A DNA stretch of 64,000 nucleotides, taken from positions 94,095-158,094 of the forward strand of contig CALWFB010000001.1 in NCBI GenBank assembly GCA_944377485.1. Direction: 5' to 3'. The translations under genes and the position numbers were made by a program. The stretch is from an uncultured Clostridia bacterium. GTDB taxonomy: Bacteria > Bacillota > Clostridia > Christensenellales > UBA1242. Below are positions 23,307 to 30,028 of this stretch, piece by piece; positions within the stretch are counted from its first letter, which is position 1; each line of letters starts with the position of its first letter. The notes beneath the pieces are model-generated. The model searched no databases and was not told the origin of the DNA. It saw only the letters and a program-made list of their open reading frames with translations.

Positions 23307-25679
23307 TTATCTCAATTTAGCATTTATGGTTTTTATCTCCGCATCTAAAACTTTATTCACAATAGGCGCAATTTCATTCTCGCTCAAAGGCTTTTCACCT
23401 TGTCGAATGACAAGTGTCATAGCAACACTCTTTTTGTCCTGACCTATTGAGTCTGAGCAATAAATGTCAAAGATTTTGCATTCAACAATGTTTTGTCTAT
23501 CAGCTTTGATTGCGGTTTCAATGATTTTGCTCGCAGGGATATCTTTATCTACAACGATGGCTAAATCACGCATAATGTAAGGCAATTTTTCTGGTGCATT
23601 TCCCGTGTGTCTATCGTTTAGTCGTGAAATTACATTTGTTAGGTTTATTTCTGCTATGAATACTTTTTGATTGATTTCAAAATTCTTTCTAATAATAGGG
23701 TGAATTTCCCCAATTATACCAATTGGACGATTGTATAAATAAATGTCCGCACAAATTCCCGGGTGCATCTGTTTATGTTGACTTGCTCGATATTCTAGTT
23801 TTATTCCAATACTGGATAGTATTTTATTTAAGTCATTTTTTAGTTTATAGAAATCATAATCGCCAGTTAGACTGAGGCATAAATTATTGTGTTCATCAGG
23901 TAATTCAGTAATCGGAAGTTGTTTAGGAATGAACACACGAGCTAATTCAAACAACTTTAAATCTTTGTTCCCTTGCTTTAAATTGAATGAAATTGTATTT
24001 AACATGTTAGGGATAAGGCTTCTTCGCATGATGCTGTAATCTTGTCCTATTGGATTGGCGATTTTTATATGTTCATTTTCGTCCATTAGAGCAGCAGCAA
24101 TCATCTTAGGTCCGCCAAATTGCCAGGTCAAAGTTTCATTATATCCGAATAAGGCAGTTGTGATTTTTAGTTTATTTATATTTTTTTGTTCAACAGTCAA
24201 TTCTCCAACGGTAGAGAAGTCTGTGGCAGTACTATCGTCAATACTGATTTTATCCAAGCCGTAAATTCTGCCCACTTCTTCACATATATCGCAATCACGT
24301 TCAATATCGGTTCTCTCTTCTGGAATCGTGCTAATAAGAGTGTCGCCACGTGCAATCGTCTGAATTCCTAGTCTATTTAGAATTTCAATCATTATAGATT
24401 TATCTATATTAAGGCCTAATCTATCACAAATATTTTGTACTTTACTTTCTACTGTTCTCAATTTTGGCAATCCAGAATTTTTATCGACTGTCACACTTGA
24501 AATATCGCCGGCATTTAATTTTGATATAATATTTAATGCACGTTTCATACCAATTTCTGTATTACCAATATTTACACCTTTTGAATATCTTATGGAACTA
24601 TCACTGCTTAATCCTAATGCGTGTGAACTGCGTCTAATATTTGCAAAATGAAAATTAGCAGATTCGAGCAATACATTTTTTGTATCAGGATAAGTACCGC
24701 TATCTACACCCCCCATAATTCCTGCAATGACCATAGGTTCAACAGCATTCGCAATCACCAAGTTATTTTCATTTAAAGTGTATTCATTATTGTCGAGTGT
24801 GAGCAATTTTTCTTGATTTTTAGCACGTCTGACGATGATTTTGTCACCTTTAATTTTAGATAAATCAAATGCGTGCATAGGTTCACCCACTTCTAGTAGA
24901 ACATAGTTAGTGATATCTACATAAAGAGAGTGTGGAGTATGGTCAAGTAGAGTCAGTCTCCTTTGCATCCAATCAGGAGATGCTCCATTTTTAACGTTCT
25001 CTACAATAGTGGCTTCATATCTTGGGCAAAGAGCATAGTCTAATACTTCTACATCAATTTTTTTGTTTGAATTTGTTTTATATGATAAATCAAGAGGTTT
25101 TAATGGAAGATTGAATATTGCACTAATTTCTTTTGCAATTCCATAGATTGAATTACAATCAGCACGATTTGGTAGCACATTGATGTCTAAAACGATTTCA
25201 TTAAGTTTCAACACTTCTGCAATAGGAGTGCCAACTTTTAATCCGTCTTCAAGAATTAGTAGTCCGTCCACTTCGGCATTAGGATAAATTGAGTTGTCAA
25301 TACCTAATTCTTCACCTGCACAGAACATACCATTGCTTTCAACTCCACGCAAGTTTCCACTTTTTATTTGAACGCCATTAGGAAGATTTGCACCAACTAG
25401 GGCAAGGGGTACAAAATCACCTGTTTTCATATTCGTTGCATGTGTGACAATTTGAGTAGAACCAAATCCATAGTCCGCTGAACATATCACAAGTTTATCA
25501 GCATTTGGGTGTGGGCGTATGTCGGTAATTTTTGACACCACCACTTTATCCAAGCCTTTTGCTTTGTCAATTACTTCTTCTACTTCAAAACCAGCATCGG
25601 TGAGCCCTTTTGTTAATGTGCGTAATTCTATATCACTAGTGTCCACATAATCATTTATCCATGATAATAAAACTTTCAT
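23307..25679 (-). CDS. pheT: Phenylalanine--tRNA ligase beta subunit
   Basis: 790 aa. N-terminus MKVLLSWINDYV... (typical PheT), tRNA-binding, B3/4, B5 and anticodon-binding-like segments. Downstream of pheS on the same strand. Confidence 0.95.
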   Translation of the reverse strand: MKVLLSWINDYVDTSDIELRTLTKGLTDAGFEVEEVIDKAKGLDKVVVSKITDIRPHPNADKLVICSADYGFGSTQIVTHATNMKTGDFVPLALVGANLPNGVQIKSGNLRGVESNGMFCAGEELGIDNSIYPNAEVDGLLILEDGLKVGTPIAEVLKLNEIVLDINVLPNRADCNSIYGIAKEISAIFNLPLKPLDLSYKTNSNKKIDVEVLDYALCPRYEATIVENVKNGASPDWMQRRLTLLDHTPHSLYVDITNYVLLEVGEPMHAFDLSKIKGDKIIVRRAKNQEKLLTLDNNEYTLNENNLVIANAVEPMVIAGIMGGVDSGTYPDTKNVLLESANFHFANIRRSSHALGLSSDSSIRYSKGVNIGNTEIGMKRALNIISKLNAGDISSVTVDKNSGLPKLRTVESKVQNICDRLGLNIDKSIMIEILNRLGIQTIARGDTLISTIPEERTDIERDCDICEEVGRIYGLDKISIDDSTATDFSTVGELTVEQKNINKLKITTALFGYNETLTWQFGGPKMIAAALMDENEHIKIANPIGQDYSIMRRSLIPNMLNTISFNLKQGNKDLKLFELARVFIPKQLPITELPDEHNNLCLSLTGDYDFYKLKNDLNKILSSIGIKLEYRASQHKQMHPGICADIYLYNRPIGIIGEIHPIIRKNFEINQKVFIAEINLTNVISRLNDRHTGNAPEKLPYIMRDLAIVVDKDIPASKIIETAIKADRQNIVECKIFDIYCSDSIGQDKKSVAMTLVIRQGEKPLSENEIAPIVNKVLDAEIKTINAKLR

Positions 25680-25705
25680 ATTTTTCTCCTTAAAAGTTAT
25701 TTGTT

Positions 25706-25976
25706 AATTATAATTACTTAAATTGCTTAATAAATCTTTATCATTTACTGTCAATCATGAGATTGCTAGGAAACTTCGCCAGATTTATAATCAATTATAA
25801 TTACTTAAATTGCTTAATAAATCTTTATCATTTACTGTCAATCATAGAAATTGCCAGGAAACTTCGCCAGATTTATAATCAATTATAATTACTTAAATTG
25901 CTTAATAAATCTTAATCATTTACTGTCAATCATAGAAATTGCCAGGAAACTTCGTCAGATTTATAATCAATTATAA
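25706..25976. repeat. Tandem array, 3 x 87/88 bp, in the pheS-pheT spacer; each unit reiterates the pheS 3' end
   Basis: Units at 25706-25792, 25793-25880 and 25881-25968 are near-identical (a few mismatches). A fourth partial unit (25969 to ~26000) is the authentic pheS end. Each unit starts with aattataattacttaaattgcttaataaatct, which is 8 nt downstream of the stop plus the reverse complement of the codons R-F-I-K-Q-F-K-stop. Confidence 0.95.
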
Positions 25977-26999
25977 TTACTTAAATTGCTTAATAAATCT
26001 GACATCGTTTTCGAACATGACTTTTGCATTAGGAATTTTGTAGCGCATCTTTGGGAAACGGTCAAAACCAAATCCAAATGCATATCCACTATATTCGTTA
26101 GGGTCAATTCCGTTCATTTCAAGGACATGTGGATGAATCATGCCTGCACCTAGAATTTCATATTGACCAACACCTTTACATGCTGAACAACCTTTACCTT
26201 TACATACATTACATTCTGCATCGACCTCTACACTTGGTTCAGTGAAAGGGAAGTATGAGGCTCTAAATTTTGTCTTGGTACTTTCGCCAAGATATTTTTT
26301 CAAAATTAAACTCAAATCGTGTTTCAAGTCTGCAAGACTGACCTTTTTATCGATATATATACCTTCTAATTGATAGAATGCAGGAGTGTGAGTTGCATCA
26401 ATCTCGTCTTTTCTGAAAACTCTACCAAAGCTGAACACTTTGAAAGGAGGTTTAATTTTTTCCATTGCTCGTGGCTGAGTATTAGAGGTTTGTGTACGAA
26501 GTAAAATATCGTTTGTTATATATAAACTATCTTGCATATCACGAGAAGGGTGGTCTTTTGGAACGTTTACAAGTTCGAAGTTGTATTTATCATAATCAAT
26601 TTCTGGACCATCTATTTGACTAAATCCCATGCCATTCAAAATCTCTGCCATGCGAATAAAATCGATTGATATAGGGTGCAAAGCTCCAATATCTTCTTGA
26701 TTTAGGTCAAGAGTGACGTCAATTTTTTCTTTCATCAACTTTTCTTCAAGTTCGGCATCTTGCAAAAAGGTTTCTTTGCTAGATATCATTTTTTCAACTT
26801 CCTGTTTTGCAGAATTTAAAAGTTGTCCCATAGTTTGTTTTTCTTCTGGGCTAACTTCTTTCATGAAGCGGAAAAGTTGAGTTAATTTTCCATTTTTACC
26901 TAAAATTTCTACACGCAAAGATTGACACTCAGCACTAGTATTTATCTTATTTAAAGTGTCCGTTGTATATTTTATTATTTCTTCAATTTTATCTTTCAT
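25977..26999 (-). CDS. pheS: Phenylalanine--tRNA ligase alpha subunit
   Basis: 340 aa, class-II motifs (FRKDEIDATHTPAFYQLEG; GAGMIHPHVL; GYAFGFGFDRF). AAGGAG RBS. Preceded by a T-box leader. Confidence 0.95.
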   Translation of the reverse strand: MKDKIEEIIKYTTDTLNKINTSAECQSLRVEILGKNGKLTQLFRFMKEVSPEEKQTMGQLLNSAKQEVEKMISSKETFLQDAELEEKLMKEKIDVTLDLNQEDIGALHPISIDFIRMAEILNGMGFSQIDGPEIDYDKYNFELVNVPKDHPSRDMQDSLYITNDILLRTQTSNTQPRAMEKIKPPFKVFSFGRVFRKDEIDATHTPAFYQLEGIYIDKKVSLADLKHDLSLILKKYLGESTKTKFRASYFPFTEPSVEVDAECNVCKGKGCSACKGVGQYEILGAGMIHPHVLEMNGIDPNEYSGYAFGFGFDRFPKMRYKIPNAKVMFENDVRFIKQFK

Positions 27000-27038
27000 A
27001 TTTGCTCCTTTTTAATATGCTATCAATAATGTGGTATC

Positions 27039-27071
27039 AAAATAAAAAACTCGCCCTAATATTAGGACGAG
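27039..27071 (-). terminator. T-box attenuator (intrinsic terminator) upstream of pheS
   Basis: Minus strand reads CTCGTCCTA-atat-TAGGGCGAG followed by TTTTTTATTTT. 9-bp stem with one G-U pair. It directly follows the T-box sequence. Confidence 0.8.
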
Positions 27072-27106
27072 GGAATCTCGTGGTACCACCTAATTGCGCT
27101 CACAAA

Positions 27107-27343
27107 CTTCGTCAATTCTAGTCCGCATTACTTCGTTATGCGAACAACGACTTTTACTCGTTTGTTCGCTAATCCCACTCGCATTTAGATAACACTCGTG
27201 GGAACCCTGAAAAAGCTTCGTCAATTCTAGTCCGCATTACTTCGTTATGCGAACAACGACTTTTACTCGTTTGTTCGCTAATCCCACTGCGTATCTTGTG
27301 ACACTTGTGGGAACCCTTAGTACTGCACAGCTTTCCGCATTAC
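27107..27343. repeat. 109-bp tandem duplication (2 full copies plus a partial third) inside the T-box leader
   Basis: Two 73-bp cores are 100% identical (27107-27179 and 27216-27288). The flanking ~36 bp are related but diverged (cactcgtgggaaccct vs cacttgtgggaaccct). A third partial occurrence of tccgcattac is at 27334-27343. Confidence 0.9.
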
Positions 27344-27587
27344 AATTTGCTAATAGAAGTTTGATTAAGTTTATGAACCTTCATTACATTTTCACAGTTT
27401 TGTCTGGCGACTCTTAATCACATTATTGATTAAAAATGTGTTTACCGAGTGCAACTCAGATGCTGAAATTCGCTCACAGTTTGAACATAAGTGACTTTCT
27501 TCCAATGGACACTCTCTCAGAATGAAAACTGCTCACTACTTACACATCGTCATAGTTTTTATTGATGCAAATTAACTTTGCATTAAT

Positions 27588-27616
27588 ATTTTATCAATAT
27601 AAAATTGCTTTGTCAA
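27588..27616 (-). promoter_or_regulatory. Sigma-A promoter of the pheST T-box leader
   Basis: Minus strand reads TTGACA (27616-27611), 17 nt, TAAAAT (27593-27588), with TGA immediately upstream of the -10 (extended -10). Confidence 0.65.
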
Positions 27617-27742
27617 GAGATTAATTATAAAGCAATACAAATAAATTCCACTTAATTAGTTTTTTTAGTTTTTAATTCGACAATAATCGTTGTCAAAATA
27701 GTTTAATGATATGTTAGGGTATTATTTAAAGGATAGGGGTAT

Positions 27743-30028
27743 ATGAAAATTAAGAGCAATTCATGGAAATTTGTATTGAAGTACATAGTGGTATTTTTTG
27801 TCTGTTTAGTTTTTGCCAAAGCGGAGATTAATTATATTTCTCCATTTTTGATAGCCTTTTTCTTTGCGGGAATATATGTTGGATTTGAAGAAAAGTTGCT
27901 GTCTATTTTTGTTTTGAGTAGTGCACTCGCAGTTAATCCTACACTAAATTCTCTTTTGATTAATATAACCGCAGTGGCAGTTGGTTTGATACTGTTTTAC
28001 ATTTATAAATTTTCAAAAAGACCTATACCTCTATACATGATTTTTTTAGGTTTTATGCTAGGTATTGTCACCTATATATATTTTAATCATTCTAATTTTT
28101 TACATTTATTATACTACATAGCACTTGGATTGATTTGTTTATACATATTTATCATTGTATTGCATGTCATTTTGCTTAGAAAAAATTGTTTTAAACTAAC
28201 ATTGAATGAAAGTATATGTTTTTTATTCTCTATCGCAATACTCGGTATGGGATTAGCACCAATCTATATATTTGAATTTTCAATTTACAGATTTGTGCTT
28301 ATGAGTATAATTTTCATATTTGTCTCCACAGGCAGTACGCCAATGACTTTTGCTATTACTTTATCGTTTTCATTGGGGGTAGGGCTTGGTAGTCTAGATT
28401 TATTACCTTTGGCAGAGTTTGCCTTGCTGACTTTGCTGGCAAATATTTTCAGTATGCCTGCAAAATTCAAAATATCTTTTGTTGTAATAATTGCAGATAT
28501 ATTCATTCAGTATTACTTTTTCAATGTTGGAATAGATTTGTTTTATCAAATATTACCAATAATTCTTGCCGGACTATTATTTTTGTGTATACCTAATAAA
28601 ATGCTCAATAATTTTTCTGATTTTGTCTATGTCAAGAAAAGTGAATTGTCATCTCGCAATTTGATTAATACTACGAGAAAAAACATTCGTAAACGAATGA
28701 GTGAATTGAGCAATGTATTTTTAGATATGAAGCAAATTCATCTAAATATGGTAAAAAAAGATTTGACGAAAGAAGAATTGATTGCAATGCTAACACGTGA
28801 GATAATGAACACCTGTTGTAAAGATTGTTTAGACAAAAATAGATGTACACGAGCGCTCGGCACTGACAATAAATCAAATTTGGAACTATTAATTGAAATA
28901 GCAATTACAAAGGGAAAAGTGACATTGTTAGATATTCCGAATAGTCTAAGCAATCGTTGTGGCAAAGTAAACAATTTGATTAGTTTAATCAACAGGTTAA
29001 GTAGCGAATATAAGCAATATAAAAACATGCTTACAGATGTAAATAATGTAAAGATTTTATTGGCAGACCAAATGGGAGCAGTTTCTAGATTGTTATTAGA
29101 CATAGGTGATGAAATTGATACAAATGTCAGTTTTGATATAGCCAGAGAAAATAAGATTATTTCACGTCTTTTAAGTTTGAATATTGAGTGTAAGGAAGTG
29201 TTGCTGTATACTGAAAAAAACGAAGATATAAGTGCGGTTTTAATTTTAAAGGGTAAGGAGATATACAATCCTATTGTTGAAAAAGTGATGAGCGAAGTGT
29301 TAAAAATGCCTATGGAGATTACGAGTATACTTCCTATTGAAGATGGAGATTTCTTTTCAGTCACTTTAAGACGAAAGAATAAATATGATTGTGTGTTTGG
29401 TTTGGCTAGTTGTAATAAATCTGGCAATACTGAGTCGGGAGATTGTCATAGCATAATTAGATTGGGAAAAGATAGATTTTTATTGGCTCTGTGTGATGGA
29501 ATGGGAAGCGGAAAGGGCGCTCACAAAATGAGTGCTATGACTCTTGGACTGATTGAGAATTTTTATAAAGTAGGTTTTGATAATGATGTTGTGTTAGAGA
29601 GTGTAAATAAATTGTTAGCAATAAATAATCAAGAAAATTATTCAACATTAGACGTTTGTCTTCTTGATTTAAATAATGAGATTGCAGATTTTATCAAAGT
29701 TGGCTCTCCGTTTGGTTTGATTAAACGAGATGGCAATATTGAAATCGTTGAGGGTGGAGCTTTGCCAATAGGGGCATTAGACAATATTTCTCCTGCCACA
29801 AAAAAGACAACAATATCCACAAAGGATTTAATAATAATGGTGACAGATGGAATCACAGATGCCTTTGTCAGTCAGGAGAACATCATAGAATATGTATCAA
29901 AGTTGGCGAGCAACAATCCTCAGACATTGGCAGAGTCTATTTTGAATGAAGCGTTAAGGCTTAATGATATGACAGCAAAAGACGATATGACGGTATTGGT
30001 TAGCAGAATGTATTTAAAGTCAAATTAA
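27743..30028 (+). CDS. spoIIE: Stage II sporulation protein E (membrane PP2C phosphatase)
   Basis: 761 aa. About 10 N-terminal TM helices, a central regulatory region and a C-terminal PP2C domain (GDCHSIIRLGKDRFLLALCDGMGSGKGAHKMS ... IIMVTDGITDAF). Followed by tilS, as in the Bacillus spoIIE region. Confidence 0.92.
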   Translation: MKIKSNSWKFVLKYIVVFFVCLVFAKAEINYISPFLIAFFFAGIYVGFEEKLLSIFVLSSALAVNPTLNSLLINITAVAVGLILFYIYKFSKRPIPLYMIFLGFMLGIVTYIYFNHSNFLHLLYYIALGLICLYIFIIVLHVILLRKNCFKLTLNESICFLFSIAILGMGLAPIYIFEFSIYRFVLMSIIFIFVSTGSTPMTFAITLSFSLGVGLGSLDLLPLAEFALLTLLANIFSMPAKFKISFVVIIADIFIQYYFFNVGIDLFYQILPIILAGLLFLCIPNKMLNNFSDFVYVKKSELSSRNLINTTRKNIRKRMSELSNVFLDMKQIHLNMVKKDLTKEELIAMLTREIMNTCCKDCLDKNRCTRALGTDNKSNLELLIEIAITKGKVTLLDIPNSLSNRCGKVNNLISLINRLSSEYKQYKNMLTDVNNVKILLADQMGAVSRLLLDIGDEIDTNVSFDIARENKIISRLLSLNIECKEVLLYTEKNEDISAVLILKGKEIYNPIVEKVMSEVLKMPMEITSILPIEDGDFFSVTLRRKNKYDCVFGLASCNKSGNTESGDCHSIIRLGKDRFLLALCDGMGSGKGAHKMSAMTLGLIENFYKVGFDNDVVLESVNKLLAINNQENYSTLDVCLLDLNNEIADFIKVGSPFGLIKRDGNIEIVEGGALPIGALDNISPATKKTTISTKDLIIMVTDGITDAFVSQENIIEYVSKLASNNPQTLAESILNEALRLNDMTAKDDMTVLVSRMYLKSN

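Follow-up and report, generated by a model that had tools for sequence, protein, structure and literature searches.

The pheS-pheT leader of this genome raises the question of how a T-box riboswitch can carry a tandemly repeated insert between its tRNA-binding and termination parts. Annotation pipelines depend on the usual picture of T-box leaders, that of compact elements 200-300 nt long whose Stem III is short. In the window, by which we mean the whole 64-kb stretch of DNA that was analysed, the pheS leader measures ~582 nt from the promoter to the ATG at 26999. A first-pass annotation had described it as a far over-long, Phe-specific T-box leader with its extra length between the tRNA-binding domain and the antiterminator, and our analysis agrees on both points: the specifier is UUC, pheS and pheT follow, and the insert sits where it was placed. 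What the insert is, and how it arose, we see differently. The leader is probably an ordinary Phe T-box whose switch works as usual, and whose Stem III has become a tolerated, fast-evolving and recombination-prone array of modules.

Table 1. Features of the pheS-pheT leader and operon (window coordinates)
Feature	Position	Strand	Description or basis
Promoter, sigma-70-type	27588-27616	-	-35 TTGACA 27616-27611, 17-nt spacer, -10 TAAAAT 27593-27588, TG upstream
Stem I	27453-27556	-	RF00230 partial match; distal loop also present
Stem I K-turn region	27553-27545	-	AUGACGAUG
Stem I AG bay	27517-27512	-	AGAGAG
Stem I specifier loop	27471-27462	-	GAAUUUCAGC
Specifier codon UUC (Phe)	27465-27467	-	Read from sequence; conserved purine A next, 27464
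Stem II	27407-27452	-	Alignment to T-box model and MFE hairpin
Stem IIA/B pseudoknot region	27378-27406	-	CAGACAAAACUGUGAAAAUGUAAUGAAGG; alignment to T-box model
Stem III closing helix, 5' strand	27367-27379	-	GGUUCAUAAACUU; MFE pairing with 27109-27098
Degenerate partial third copy	27318-27343	-	GUAAUGCGGAAAGCUGUGCAGUACUA (cf. GUAAUGCGGACUAGAAUUGACGAAG in units); read from sequence
Repeat unit 1 (distal)	27213-27321	-	Tandem repeat; covariance model R1, 109.8 bits
Unit 1 hairpins		-	Ha 27312-27282, Hb 27278-27249, Hc 27254-27230
Repeat unit 2 (proximal)	27104-27212	-	Tandem repeat; R1, 104.7 bits
Unit 2 hairpins		-	Ha 27203-27173 (GA/GA internal loop), Hb 27169-27140, Hc 27145-27121
Stem III closing helix, 3' strand	27098-27109	-	AAGUUUGUGAGC; then GC, then conserved AA 27095-27094
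T-box sequence	27077-27095	-	AAUUAGGUGGUACCACGAG; RF00230 partial match
Terminator	27040-27071	-	CUCGUCCUA-AUAU-UAGGGCGAG (27071-27050) and U-run; 9 bp, 5 of them GC
pheS Shine-Dalgarno	27010-27005	-	AAGGAG; ATG at 26999
pheS, 340 aa	25977-26999	-	Pfam PF01409, PF02912
pheT, 790 aa	23307-25679	-	Second gene of regulated operon; Pfam PF03483, PF17759 and others

The pheST promoter is the best site of the region, with 11 of 12 consensus matches, and its sequence is kept in two contigs of the same species (L001 and L002). An internal promoter in each unit (TTCGCA-18-TAGAAT) was considered and rejected: it has only 9 of 12 matches, it is not kept in the relative L009, and its transcript would be without Stem I. 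We also rejected a leader-peptide attenuator of the E. coli pheM type, as the repeat region contains no credible Phe-rich ORF. The only sense-strand ORFs there encode 22 aa (27237-27169) and 44 aa (TTG start, 27224-27090); each has two Phe codons, which lie scattered, and lacks a Shine-Dalgarno sequence, and the frame of the 22-aa ORF is altered in the one-unit allele described below. A discriminator-base check found no tRNA gene, tRNA-Phe included, within the 64-kb window. A second tandem array lies directly downstream of pheS.

Judged by its sequence, the leader is a tRNA-Phe-specific T-box riboswitch of the kind that attenuates transcription, with all core parts present (Table 1). The segment GAAUUUCA supplies the UUC specifier followed by A, and the overlapping UUU is likewise a Phe codon; the amino acid agrees with the downstream genes. 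The surrounding GAAUUUC(A/G) motif is kept in all 23 relatives, among which the Stem IIA/B region is near-invariant. The end of this region, before Stem III, is a string of purines, GAAGG (27382-27378). In the T-box sequence, a 7-nt bulge, UGGUACC (27088-27082), contains the UGGU that would pair with the tRNA 3' end ACCA, and the stretch UAGG-UGGUACC-ACGAG...CUCGU-CCUA aligns to model positions ~184-216 with high posterior probability. The 5' strand of the terminator (27071-27063) doubles as the 3' strand of the antiterminator. The terminator hairpin is followed by the U-run UUUUUUAUUU, and together they form the sole terminator-like site on the minus strand in 25600-27800. Neither a motif search nor Rfam at permissive thresholds found a second T-box motif in the 64-kb window.

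At the Rfam gathering threshold of 93 bits the leader has no match. The canonical parts can be delimited with RF00230, but only as two collinear matches of 27-28 bits: one runs from Stem I through IIA/B (27562-27375, 27.9 bits, E = 3.8e-4) and the other covers the T-box and antiterminator, with their model columns aligned (27167-27060, 26.7 bits, E = 7.8e-4). The leader is split in this way because ~290 nt part the IIA/B pseudoknot from the T-box sequence, and its failure to reach the gathering score reflects an insertion penalty, not absent elements. Among relatives, a longer insert goes with a lower RF00230 score, from 102 bits at ~30 nt down to 26 bits at 485 nt; where Stem III is short, the score is 82-102 bits. 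In Rfam scans of the region and the whole window at permissive thresholds, the units matched no known family except T-box.

The insert contains a tandem duplication, reported by Tandem Repeats Finder at 27107-27317 (period 109, 1.9 copies, score 371). Its two 73-nt cores (27107-27179 and 27216-27288) are 100% identical, as originally noted, and the longer 76-nt copies (27104-27179 and 27213-27288) have one mismatch. The same cannot be said of the 109-nt unit as a whole, which had been called perfect. In the ungapped register 15 of 109 positions differ; 14 fall in the first 33 nt (hairpin Ha, 5' strand and apex), and the 73-nt core is free of differences. This mosaic (0 of 73 nt against 15 of 36 nt differing) qualifies the view of a recent event, with which the identical core alone would agree. 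A single fresh duplication fits it less well than an older array made uniform by recombination, or units having been lost and gained, and the repeat in L009 has the same mosaic pattern. For the origin of the units, neutral slippage is a live option. Upstream of unit 1, the partial third copy is probably the decayed remnant of an older unit. Across the 64-kb window there are exactly two occurrences each of the 30-nt hairpin GCGAACAAACGAGTAAAAGTCGTTGTTCGC and the motif AGGGTTCCCACRAGTG, and neither had a match in any of 100 shuffles. The duplication had also been taken to explain the excess length, of which it accounts for only 109 nt: in the one-unit allele the distance from IIA/B to the T-box is still ~190 nt, compared with 24-34 nt in relatives with short leaders.

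Each unit is predicted to be a self-folding module. Hairpin Ha (UCCCAC...GUGGGA, with a G-run on its 5' side) is followed by three segments, seg1 GCGAAC, seg2 GUUCGC and seg3 GCGGAC, which are predicted to form alternative hairpins, Hb by pairing of seg1 with seg2 and Hc by pairing of seg2 with seg3. Across 14 instances, in an alignment whose register was set by hand, the outer stem of Ha is 97.6% paired and two of its pairs have compensatory changes; the observed score was reached in 0 of 500 shuffles. RNAalifold on seven units found Ha and Hc with 9 covarying pairs, and the compensatory changes in both hairpins span genomes with 80-96% PheS identity. In these alignments the covariation of Ha and Hc shows selection for structure. 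The GA/GA internal loop is missing from several copies, including unit 1 of the window. We found no pairing partner for the unpaired G-run that is conserved 5' of Ha; CCCU of the antiterminator loop was rejected as one, because the antiterminator loops of L011, L016, L017, L022, L026 and L031 are without the C-run. The Hc loop GAAGU was likewise rejected as an anticodon mimic for the specifier AUUUC. Its positions are not conserved, with GAA present in some Hc loops (window, L009 and L004) and missing from that of L018, and such matches arise by chance in purine-rich loops.

Stem III adjoins the T-box on its 5' side and is flanked by 5'-RRRxG and AA-3' (PMC7583486). In the present leader a 12-bp helix (27379-27367/27109-27098) has GAAGG before it and GC-AA after it, and its form is modified in that the strands are ~257 nt apart. 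The helix encloses the repeat region in minimum free energy (MFE) folds of both the region and the whole leader, and it is kept whether one, two or three units are present; the MFE structure of a 540-nt RNA is unreliable in detail, and Stem I is non-canonical in the whole-leader fold. The fold that encloses the repeat region has z = -5.5, and blocking the 5' strand costs 11.4 kcal/mol. This strand is the best partner of the 3' strand (-15.2 kcal/mol), and in prefix folds it stays essentially free until the partner is transcribed. The pairing extends beyond the window: in all 14 relatives with inserts of at least 100 nt the IIA/B-side flank pairs with the T-box-side flank, at a mean of -15.0 kcal/mol compared with -9.4 for cross-species and -6.6 for shuffled controls.

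Because this long-range helix at the Stem III position encloses the insert, we place the repeats inside Stem III, and in the predicted structure they are an expansion of it; Ha, Hb/Hc and the remnant all lie between 27378 and 27098. The first-pass annotation had allowed that the repeats might be ordinary Stem II/III. They are indeed inside a helix at the Stem III position, but that Stem III is far from ordinary. In every module seg1 is complementary to the Stem III 3' strand, and in L017, L022, L031 and L016 the local seg1 is predicted to bind this strand more strongly than the distal strand does. The arrangement inside Stem III may therefore alternate with another topology, a linker insertion followed by a local Stem III.

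Homologous modules, 0 to 4 in number, occupy the same place in Christensenellaceae relatives (Ca. Onthoplasma and other MAGs), where the distance from IIA/B to the T-box ranges from 24 to 485 nt. The module is kept in ~13 of 24 related genomes with constant place and orientation. Outside its training set, R1 matched L011, L026, L023, L016, L022, L031, L017 (two copies), L014 and L019, always on the sense strand and between IIA/B and the T-box. At this place L009 has an independent tandem repeat of period 108, whose core of 74 nt is perfect, and L008 (period 103), L016 (109) and L017 (117) each have another; tandem duplications of 103-117 nt thus occur in four other species, and amplification in five lineages overall. 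Four relatives (L012, L025, L027 and L028) have a plain Stem III region of 24-34 nt, and L007 (96% PheS identity) and L010 have other inserts. The apex of Stem II is also freely expanded within the clade. In a metagenome scan with TGGGRNNAGCGAACAAAC, a pattern too unspecific for this use, the 120 stretches listed came from unrelated, mostly high-GC contigs; the Ha motif GG-N1-2-CCC combined with a downstream T-box was in 0 of the 120.

Comparison with orthologous leaders showed that near-identical strains differ in copy number. Contigs L001-L003 have one unit, an identical PheS and pheS DNA that is 99.1-99.7% identical. Because contigs with identical PheS hold one unit, the unit number is variable within the species as far as these contigs, which are short-read de Bruijn assemblies, represent it. 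One further contig (L006) ends exactly 30 nt (k-1) before the divergence of the two paths leaving the core, and both the unit junction AAGCUUUUUCAGGG and the unit-2 hairpin recur in an independent sample (L004). An exact look-up of the neighbouring SpoIIE protein for further contigs spanning the leader returned no record.

Two other readings concern the identity of the units. They had been proposed to be reiterated, degenerate copies of the antiterminator/terminator that act as decoys or pausing structures, which we consider very unlikely. There is a resemblance: between CAGGGUUCCCACGAG and the T-box AGGUGGUACCACGAG, 12 of 15 aligned positions agree, with one gap, and CAGGGUUCCCACGAG stands at a fixed distance after GACGAAG, which also precedes the Stem III 3' strand, and GGGAUUAGCGA is loosely like the terminator 3' strand AUUAGGGCGAG. 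However, the resemblance of CAGGGTTCCCACGAG or CAGGGUUCCCACGAG to the real T-box is equalled or bettered by a local match in 258 of 2000 leader shuffles (13%), and the comparison of the module with its own T-box/terminator gave p = 0.17-0.88 for all 14 instances tested (11 genomes). In the window and in the instances tested from relatives alike, the similarity to the T-box and to the antiterminator/terminator is within chance. In relatives the homologous motif moves further from the T-box, as in L031, where CGGGGUCCCCGC is even less like one, while the real T-box is invariant. CCCAC pairs with GUGGG in the covarying hairpin of the unit instead of mimicking helix A1/A2, and an A1/A2-like helix is impossible, since ACGAG and CGAGU are non-complementary direct repeats. 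The units are without the UGGN bulge, and their hairpins without a U-run in either unit, as the first-pass annotation had itself observed, and both absences argue against decoys; with Stem I missing as well, the units have none of the parts of a tandem T-box or duplicated antiterminator. The least probable reading, which we give hardly any weight, is that the units derive from a REP- or MITE-like repeat, dispersed or mobile, whose copies entered the leader, or that assembly produced the duplication as an artefact. Their G+C content (0.44-0.45) is higher than that of the AT-rich surroundings, the array downstream of pheS is a second one close by, and short-read contigs break at the units. Against this, there is no further unit copy in the 64-kb window, all 25 R1 matches in 221 kb (the window and the pheS neighbourhoods of relatives) lie in pheS leaders, and no inverted terminal repeats were found flanking the units. 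The 15 differences between the units and the recurrence of the unit-2 hairpin and junction in an independent sample would not be expected of an artefact.

A weightier alternative, though still unlikely, is that the module is a functional accessory domain, in which Ha with its G-run and GA/GA loop, together with the Hb/Hc flip, would bind a partner or set the folding pathway of the discriminator, so that copy number would act as a heritable rheostat of pheST. The proposed partner could be a protein, another part of tRNA-Phe or another part of the leader. In a sharper form, which we regard as rather improbable, the domain would be selected, each copy adding an alternative 5' Stem III strand and an Ha, and the recombining copy number would set the kinetics or threshold of the tRNA-Phe decision. 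The covariation in Ha and Hc, which a purely neutral insert would not need, means that a specific role should not be dismissed. The persistence of the module in one place and orientation, its amplification in five lineages and the complementarity of every seg1 to the Stem III 3' strand point the same way, and a precedent exists in stem Sa of staphylococcal glyS, which is needed for full readthrough and tRNA discrimination (PMC9177973). Yet close relatives do without the module, having other inserts (L007 and L010) or a plain Stem III region, and the free expansion of the Stem II apex in the clade is what tolerated expansion segments would show. The G-run is without a partner in our searches, and the GA/GA loop is not common to all copies.

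In the tolerated-array reading, which we favour, the mechanism would be that of the family. Uncharged tRNA-Phe would pair at two sites, the UUC specifier of Stem I and the UGGU bulge of the T-box, and its binding would stabilise the antiterminator against the terminator. The insert between the Stem III strands would be a lineage-specific expansion domain of ~109-nt modules, with two full modules and a decayed remnant in the window. The discriminator, formed by Stem III together with the antiterminator, would still assemble and the switch would work as usual, since folding within the modules is local and the closing helix still has its canonical purine-rich flanks. The array would grow, shrink and homogenise via unequal recombination or slippage between modules, so that copy number would be polymorphic inside the species and would differ greatly from one sister species to the next. 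The regulatory consequence would most likely be small. For each unit there would be ~109 nt more to transcribe after tRNA capture and before the decision on termination, and the seg1 of that unit would offer an extra 5' partner for the single Stem III 3' strand. The Stem III expansion is a variant of a known switch and no new kind of regulator.

With canonical T-boxes (RF00230; B. subtilis tyrS, pheS and glyQS) this leader has in common Stem I with the specifier, Stem II, the IIA/B pseudoknot, a purine-flanked helix 5' of the T-box, the UGGN bulge, an antiterminator and a terminator that exclude each other, and, downstream, an operon of the cognate aaRS. It differs in the distance between the Stem III strands, which enclose only a short loop in canonical members, and in total length. 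In tandem T-boxes such as B. subtilis thrZ the whole riboswitch is repeated, including Stem I, specifier and terminator. The present leader is likewise repetitive, but only an internal module without tRNA-contact elements is repeated. In concept the insert resembles the expansion segments of rRNA and RNase P RNA, in which extra helices grow from the apex of a conserved helix, the core is kept and length varies fast; here the setting is a small cis-regulatory leader, with tandem duplication and polymorphism within a species.

The closest described architecture is that seen in the metICFE-mdh (met) leader from S. aureus, in which a 150-nt insertion, L I-III, is tolerated at the corresponding place; as speculation, its authors raise added time for transcription and the positioning of the tRNA (PMC7913692). 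Both leaders have extra stem-loops between IIA/B and an otherwise complete T-box, and the likeness is one of architecture alone. The S. aureus insertion precedes a local Stem III, is non-repetitive and is conserved in staphylococci, whereas the insert described here is enclosed by Stem III or may alternate with it, and consists of tandem modules in 0 to 4 copies. Stem Sa of glyS is likewise a lineage-specific addition to the 3' domain of a T-box that affects readthrough (PMC9177973), but unlike our module it is a single, non-repeated 42-nt stem in the terminator/antiterminator domain and is fixed in its lineage.

The Rfam model at threshold misses the pheST element entirely, together with most pheS leaders of the clade. 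If the module is neutral, the practical lesson concerns annotation: models for such leaders must be split or tolerate insertions. With all tRNA-contact elements intact, as much as ~480 nt of modular, tandemly duplicating RNA can be accommodated at the Stem III position, which goes beyond the one precedent described, that of the S. aureus met leader. These genomes also provide alleles with 0 to 4 modules in a natural series, one versus two within one species among them, with which one could probe how T-box switching responds to transcription time and topology in the interval from tRNA capture to the termination decision.

The pheST leader belongs to the T-box family by every structural criterion that could be tested except its Rfam score, which falls short because of an insertion in the leader. 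The whole window gave no Rfam match at gathering thresholds; at permissive thresholds RF00230 matched the leader twice, in collinear order. All parts of the T-box core are present. The specifier loop GAAUUUCAGC gives UUC followed by a purine, the T-box sequence is UAGG-UGGUACC-ACGAG, and the antiterminator 3' strand CUCGUCCUA is common to a terminator that is followed by a U-run. From promoter to ATG the leader measures ~582 nt, in agreement with the first-pass annotation, and the duplication supplies only 109 nt of its excess length. The window contains no second T-box and no tRNA gene. No credible leader peptide was found in the leader.

Features of the pheST leader and its surroundings, with leader repeats of related loci (handles beginning with L)
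Feature	Position	Strand	Remark
Promoter	27616-27588	minus	TTGACA-17-TAAAAT with upstream TG, near-consensus
RF00230 match 1	27562-27375	minus	27.9 bits; Stem I, Stem II, IIA/B pseudoknot
Closing helix	27379-27367 with 27109-27098	minus	12 bp, predicted
Partial third copy	27343-27318	minus	decayed, upstream of the units
Unit 1	27321-27213	minus	
Unit 2	27212-27104	minus	
G-runs	27313-27317 and 27204-27208	minus	homologous positions in relatives
RF00230 match 2	27167-27060	minus	26.7 bits; confidently aligned columns are T-box sequence and antiterminator
Terminator	27071-27050	minus	
pheS	25977-26999	minus	ATG at 26999; Pfam confirms PheS
pheS-pheT spacer array	25706-26000	minus	88-bp period
Antisense promoter-like sites	25763-25791, 25851-25879, 25939-25967	plus	directed into the pheS 3' end
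pheT	23307-25679	minus	Pfam confirms PheT
L009 leader repeat			period 108; 74-nt perfect core over the same part of the unit as the window's core
L008 leader repeat			period 103
L016 leader repeat			period 109
L017 leader repeat			period 117, 2.2 copies

Tandem Repeats Finder reported 1.9 copies with a period of 109 nt (27107-27317), and a repeat search found 76-nt copies (27104-27179 and 27213-27288) with one mismatch; the 73-nt cores are therefore identical. In the 64 kb there are exactly two copies each of the 30-nt hairpin and of the AGGGTTCCCACRAGTG motif, and shuffled sequences had no match. The earlier description of a perfect 109-bp duplication was overstated: aligned in register, the two units show 15 differences over 109 positions, 14 of them within the first 33 nt and 0 in the core. 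This mosaic of identity (in the window, 0 differences over 73 nt against 15 over 36 nt) recurs in L009. It fits an older array subject to unequal crossing-over and conversion better than one fresh duplication.

The organism's clade consists of uncultured gut Christensenellaceae (Candidatus Onthoplasma and other MAGs), with 24 species-level genomes whose PheS is 80-96% identical to that of the window; the next relatives are at 49%. In the minimum free energy fold, the whole repeat region (fold z = -5.5) is enclosed by a helix of GGUUCAUAAACUU with AAGUUUGUGAGC, predicted at the exact Stem III position, right after the Stem IIA/B pseudoknot (IIA/B) motif and the GAAGG purines and right before GC-AA-UU-AGGUGG. 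The predicted helix survives removal of one unit or addition of a third. Blocking its 5' strand costs 11.4 kcal/mol, and in prefix folds of growing length this strand is essentially free as long as its partner is absent. All 14 relatives whose inserts reach at least 100 nt show complementarity between the flank that follows IIA/B and the one that precedes the T-box, with differing sequences (for example GUCGCAA/UUGCGAC and GCAAAUUU/AAGUUUGC); duplex energies average -15.0 kcal/mol for own flanks, -9.4 across species and -6.6 with shuffled 3' strands. The long-range helix and the general flank complementarity therefore make the repeats an expansion that grows out of Stem III, rather than an independent element located between Stem I and the antiterminator. 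Across the clade, the T-box lies 24 to 485 nt beyond the end of the IIA/B motif (296 nt in the window), and the Rfam T-box score drops smoothly as this distance grows, from 92-102 bits at ~30-56 nt to 78 bits at ~140-190 nt, 31 bits at 280 nt and 26 bits (T-box only) at 485 nt.

Each unit is predicted to fold by itself. In the first hairpin, Ha, an outer stem UCCCAC/GUGGGA leads through an internal loop (GA/GA in unit 2) to an apical stem that is short and variable. Ha is followed by three segments, GCGAAC (seg1), GUUCGC and GCGGAC, of which the first two pair as Hb, the 11-bp hairpin of the first-pass annotation, or the last two as Hc. These hairpins are autonomous and covary. In a hand-registered alignment of 14 instances from relatives, the Ha outer stem is 97.6% paired, with U-A, C-G or A-U as basal pair and C-G, U-A, A-U or G-U as top pair; none of 500 column shuffles reached the observed covariation score, and slid registers collapse. 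RNAalifold on seven full units recovered Ha and Hc, with nine pairs preserved through double changes such as GUUCGC/GCGAAC to GUUUGC/GCAAAC in L018. In 12 of the 14 aligned instances, the Ha C-run is preceded at a distance of 1-2 nt by a conserved, unpaired G-run of three or four G (GGG-N1-2-CCC); a search for a pairing partner of the G-run found none.

In almost every species with the module, seg1 (GCGAACAAAC in the window), which directly follows Ha, also makes a good partner for the one Stem III 3' strand, so that n+1 alternative 5' strands are available to it in an array. Seg1 is weaker than the distal strand in the window (-10.7 vs -15.2 kcal/mol) and stronger, with a purine-rich string before it, in L017, L022, L031 and L016. 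The topology may alternate between an insert inside Stem III and an insert in the linker plus a local Stem III; either way, some helix is predicted to adjoin the T-box. Expansion reaches beyond Stem III, since the Stem II apex is strongly and variably expanded in the pheS leaders of the close relatives L007, L008, L009, L010 and L023, where specifier and IIA/B are 123-159 nt apart (85 nt in the window, 55-58 nt in short leaders).

We scanned 221 kb, made up of the window and 32 related loci, with R1, a covariance model of the unit. All 25 matches fall in pheS leaders and none elsewhere, 24 of them on the sense strand; the sole antisense match is a marginal overlap in L009 (14 bits, E = 0.4). 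R1 also found species outside its training set (L011, L026, L023, L016, L022, L031, L014, L019 and, with two copies, L017). The module is thus an old, locus-specific part of the clade's pheS leader. It is present in ~13 of the 24 genomes. Among those that lack it are L007, which is the closest representative, and four short-leader species (L012, L025, L027 and L028). A metagenome scan for the module, with a pattern too unspecific, gave chance matches only among the matches listed.

Copy number differs within the species, and duplication is recurrent. Three Logan contigs with identical PheS and 99.1-99.7% identical pheS DNA cross the leader with exactly one unit, and their SpoIIE-pheS spacer is 635 nt vs 744 nt in the window (a SpoIIE look-up found nothing). 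A deletion could just as well have produced the one-unit allele. The same-species contig L006 starts exactly 30 nt (k-1) ahead of the point where two paths leaving the core diverge, as expected if its sample carries the branch. An assembly artefact is unlikely. L004 (relevant stretch 1-140), with pheS DNA 100% identical to the window's, begins at the unit-1/unit-2 junction with the unit-2 type of Ha; its last unit is only about two-thirds identical to the window's and closer to that of L009, and the last 95 nt ahead of the ATG hold 3 SNPs. Either this is a leader allele recombined within the species, or the metagenome contig is a chimera with its join in the conserved T-box. Four other species (L009, L008, L016, L017) have independent tandem repeats at the same leader place.

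We infer that the switch acts as a normal tRNA-Phe-dependent attenuator, and that the insert is a tolerated expansion segment whose own hairpins would stop interference with the core. Recombination would add and remove units, the main effect probably being ~109 nt of extra transcription per unit ahead of the termination decision. In the main rival reading, selection maintains the module as an accessory domain, with copy number tuning expression. Covariation and persistence of the module speak for this, but the module is freely lost in close relatives and the Stem II apex expands freely in parallel (specifier-to-IIA/B span 55-159 nt), and we regard such a domain as rather doubtful. A mobile element is unlikely given the confinement of R1 matches to pheS leaders in the 221 kb scanned.

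The suggestion that the units serve as decoy antiterminators is also unlikely. CAGGGUUCCCACGAG aligns to AGGUGGUACCACGAG, but an equal or better local match occurs in 13% of shuffled leaders, and the module (junction, Ha and start of seg1) resembles its own T-box/terminator at chance level in all 14 instances from 11 genomes (p = 0.17-0.88). The homologous motif in relatives (UGGGUCCCCAU, CGGGGUCCCCGC, UGGGCACCCGA) diverges from the T-box, while the true T-box is invariant. CCCAC pairs with GUGGG within the unit; ACGAG and CGAGU are direct repeats and not complementary, so an A1/A2-like helix is impossible. Neither a UGGN bulge nor a U-run was found in the units. The units may still have an ancient origin in T-box sequence.

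Among described variants, the closest are stem Sa of staphylococcal glyS (PMC9177973) and the S. aureus met leader, which carries a 150-nt L I-III insertion after IIA/B, in the linker with a local Stem III, described by its authors as absent from all other T-boxes analysed (PMC7913692). The latter arrangement corresponds to the second topology proposed here. A full-text literature search found no described insert that combines the five properties seen here: modular, tandemly duplicated, within or alternating with Stem III, varying from 0 to ~4 modules among sister species, and polymorphic within a species. The insert should be of moderate interest to riboswitch specialists, and is a useful caution for annotation.

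A second tandem array lies in the pheS-pheT spacer (3.4 copies, 97% identical). The first part of its 88-bp unit is the final ~27 nt of pheS coding sequence (..RFIKQFK*), and the unit holds a hairpin CUGGCAA...UUGACAG. Same-species L001 has only ~1.4 units and a spacer of 123 nt vs 298 nt in the window. Analogous arrays follow pheS in L009 (80 nt x 3.3), L018 (88 x 1.9) and L029 (93 x 2.5), which makes both non-coding pheS flanks duplication-prone across the clade. Each 88-bp unit carries a near-consensus promoter-like site antisense to pheST (TTGCCA or TTGCTA, 17 nt, TATAAT; 10-11 of 12 matches), which could be a chance product of AT-rich sequence or a thrice-repeated antisense promoter. In four relatives an extra ORF (about 1930-2490) lies between the T-box terminator and pheS, encoding a ~175-aa protein with no Pfam match (L021, L022) or a NUDIX-domain protein (L024, L026; E = 1.6e-17 for the L026 copy); there, the Phe T-box would have one more gene under its control. 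L017 has a further tandem repeat ahead of its pheS promoter (1650-1758, 52-nt period, 2.1 copies), an indication that these genomes often duplicate intergenic DNA in tandem.
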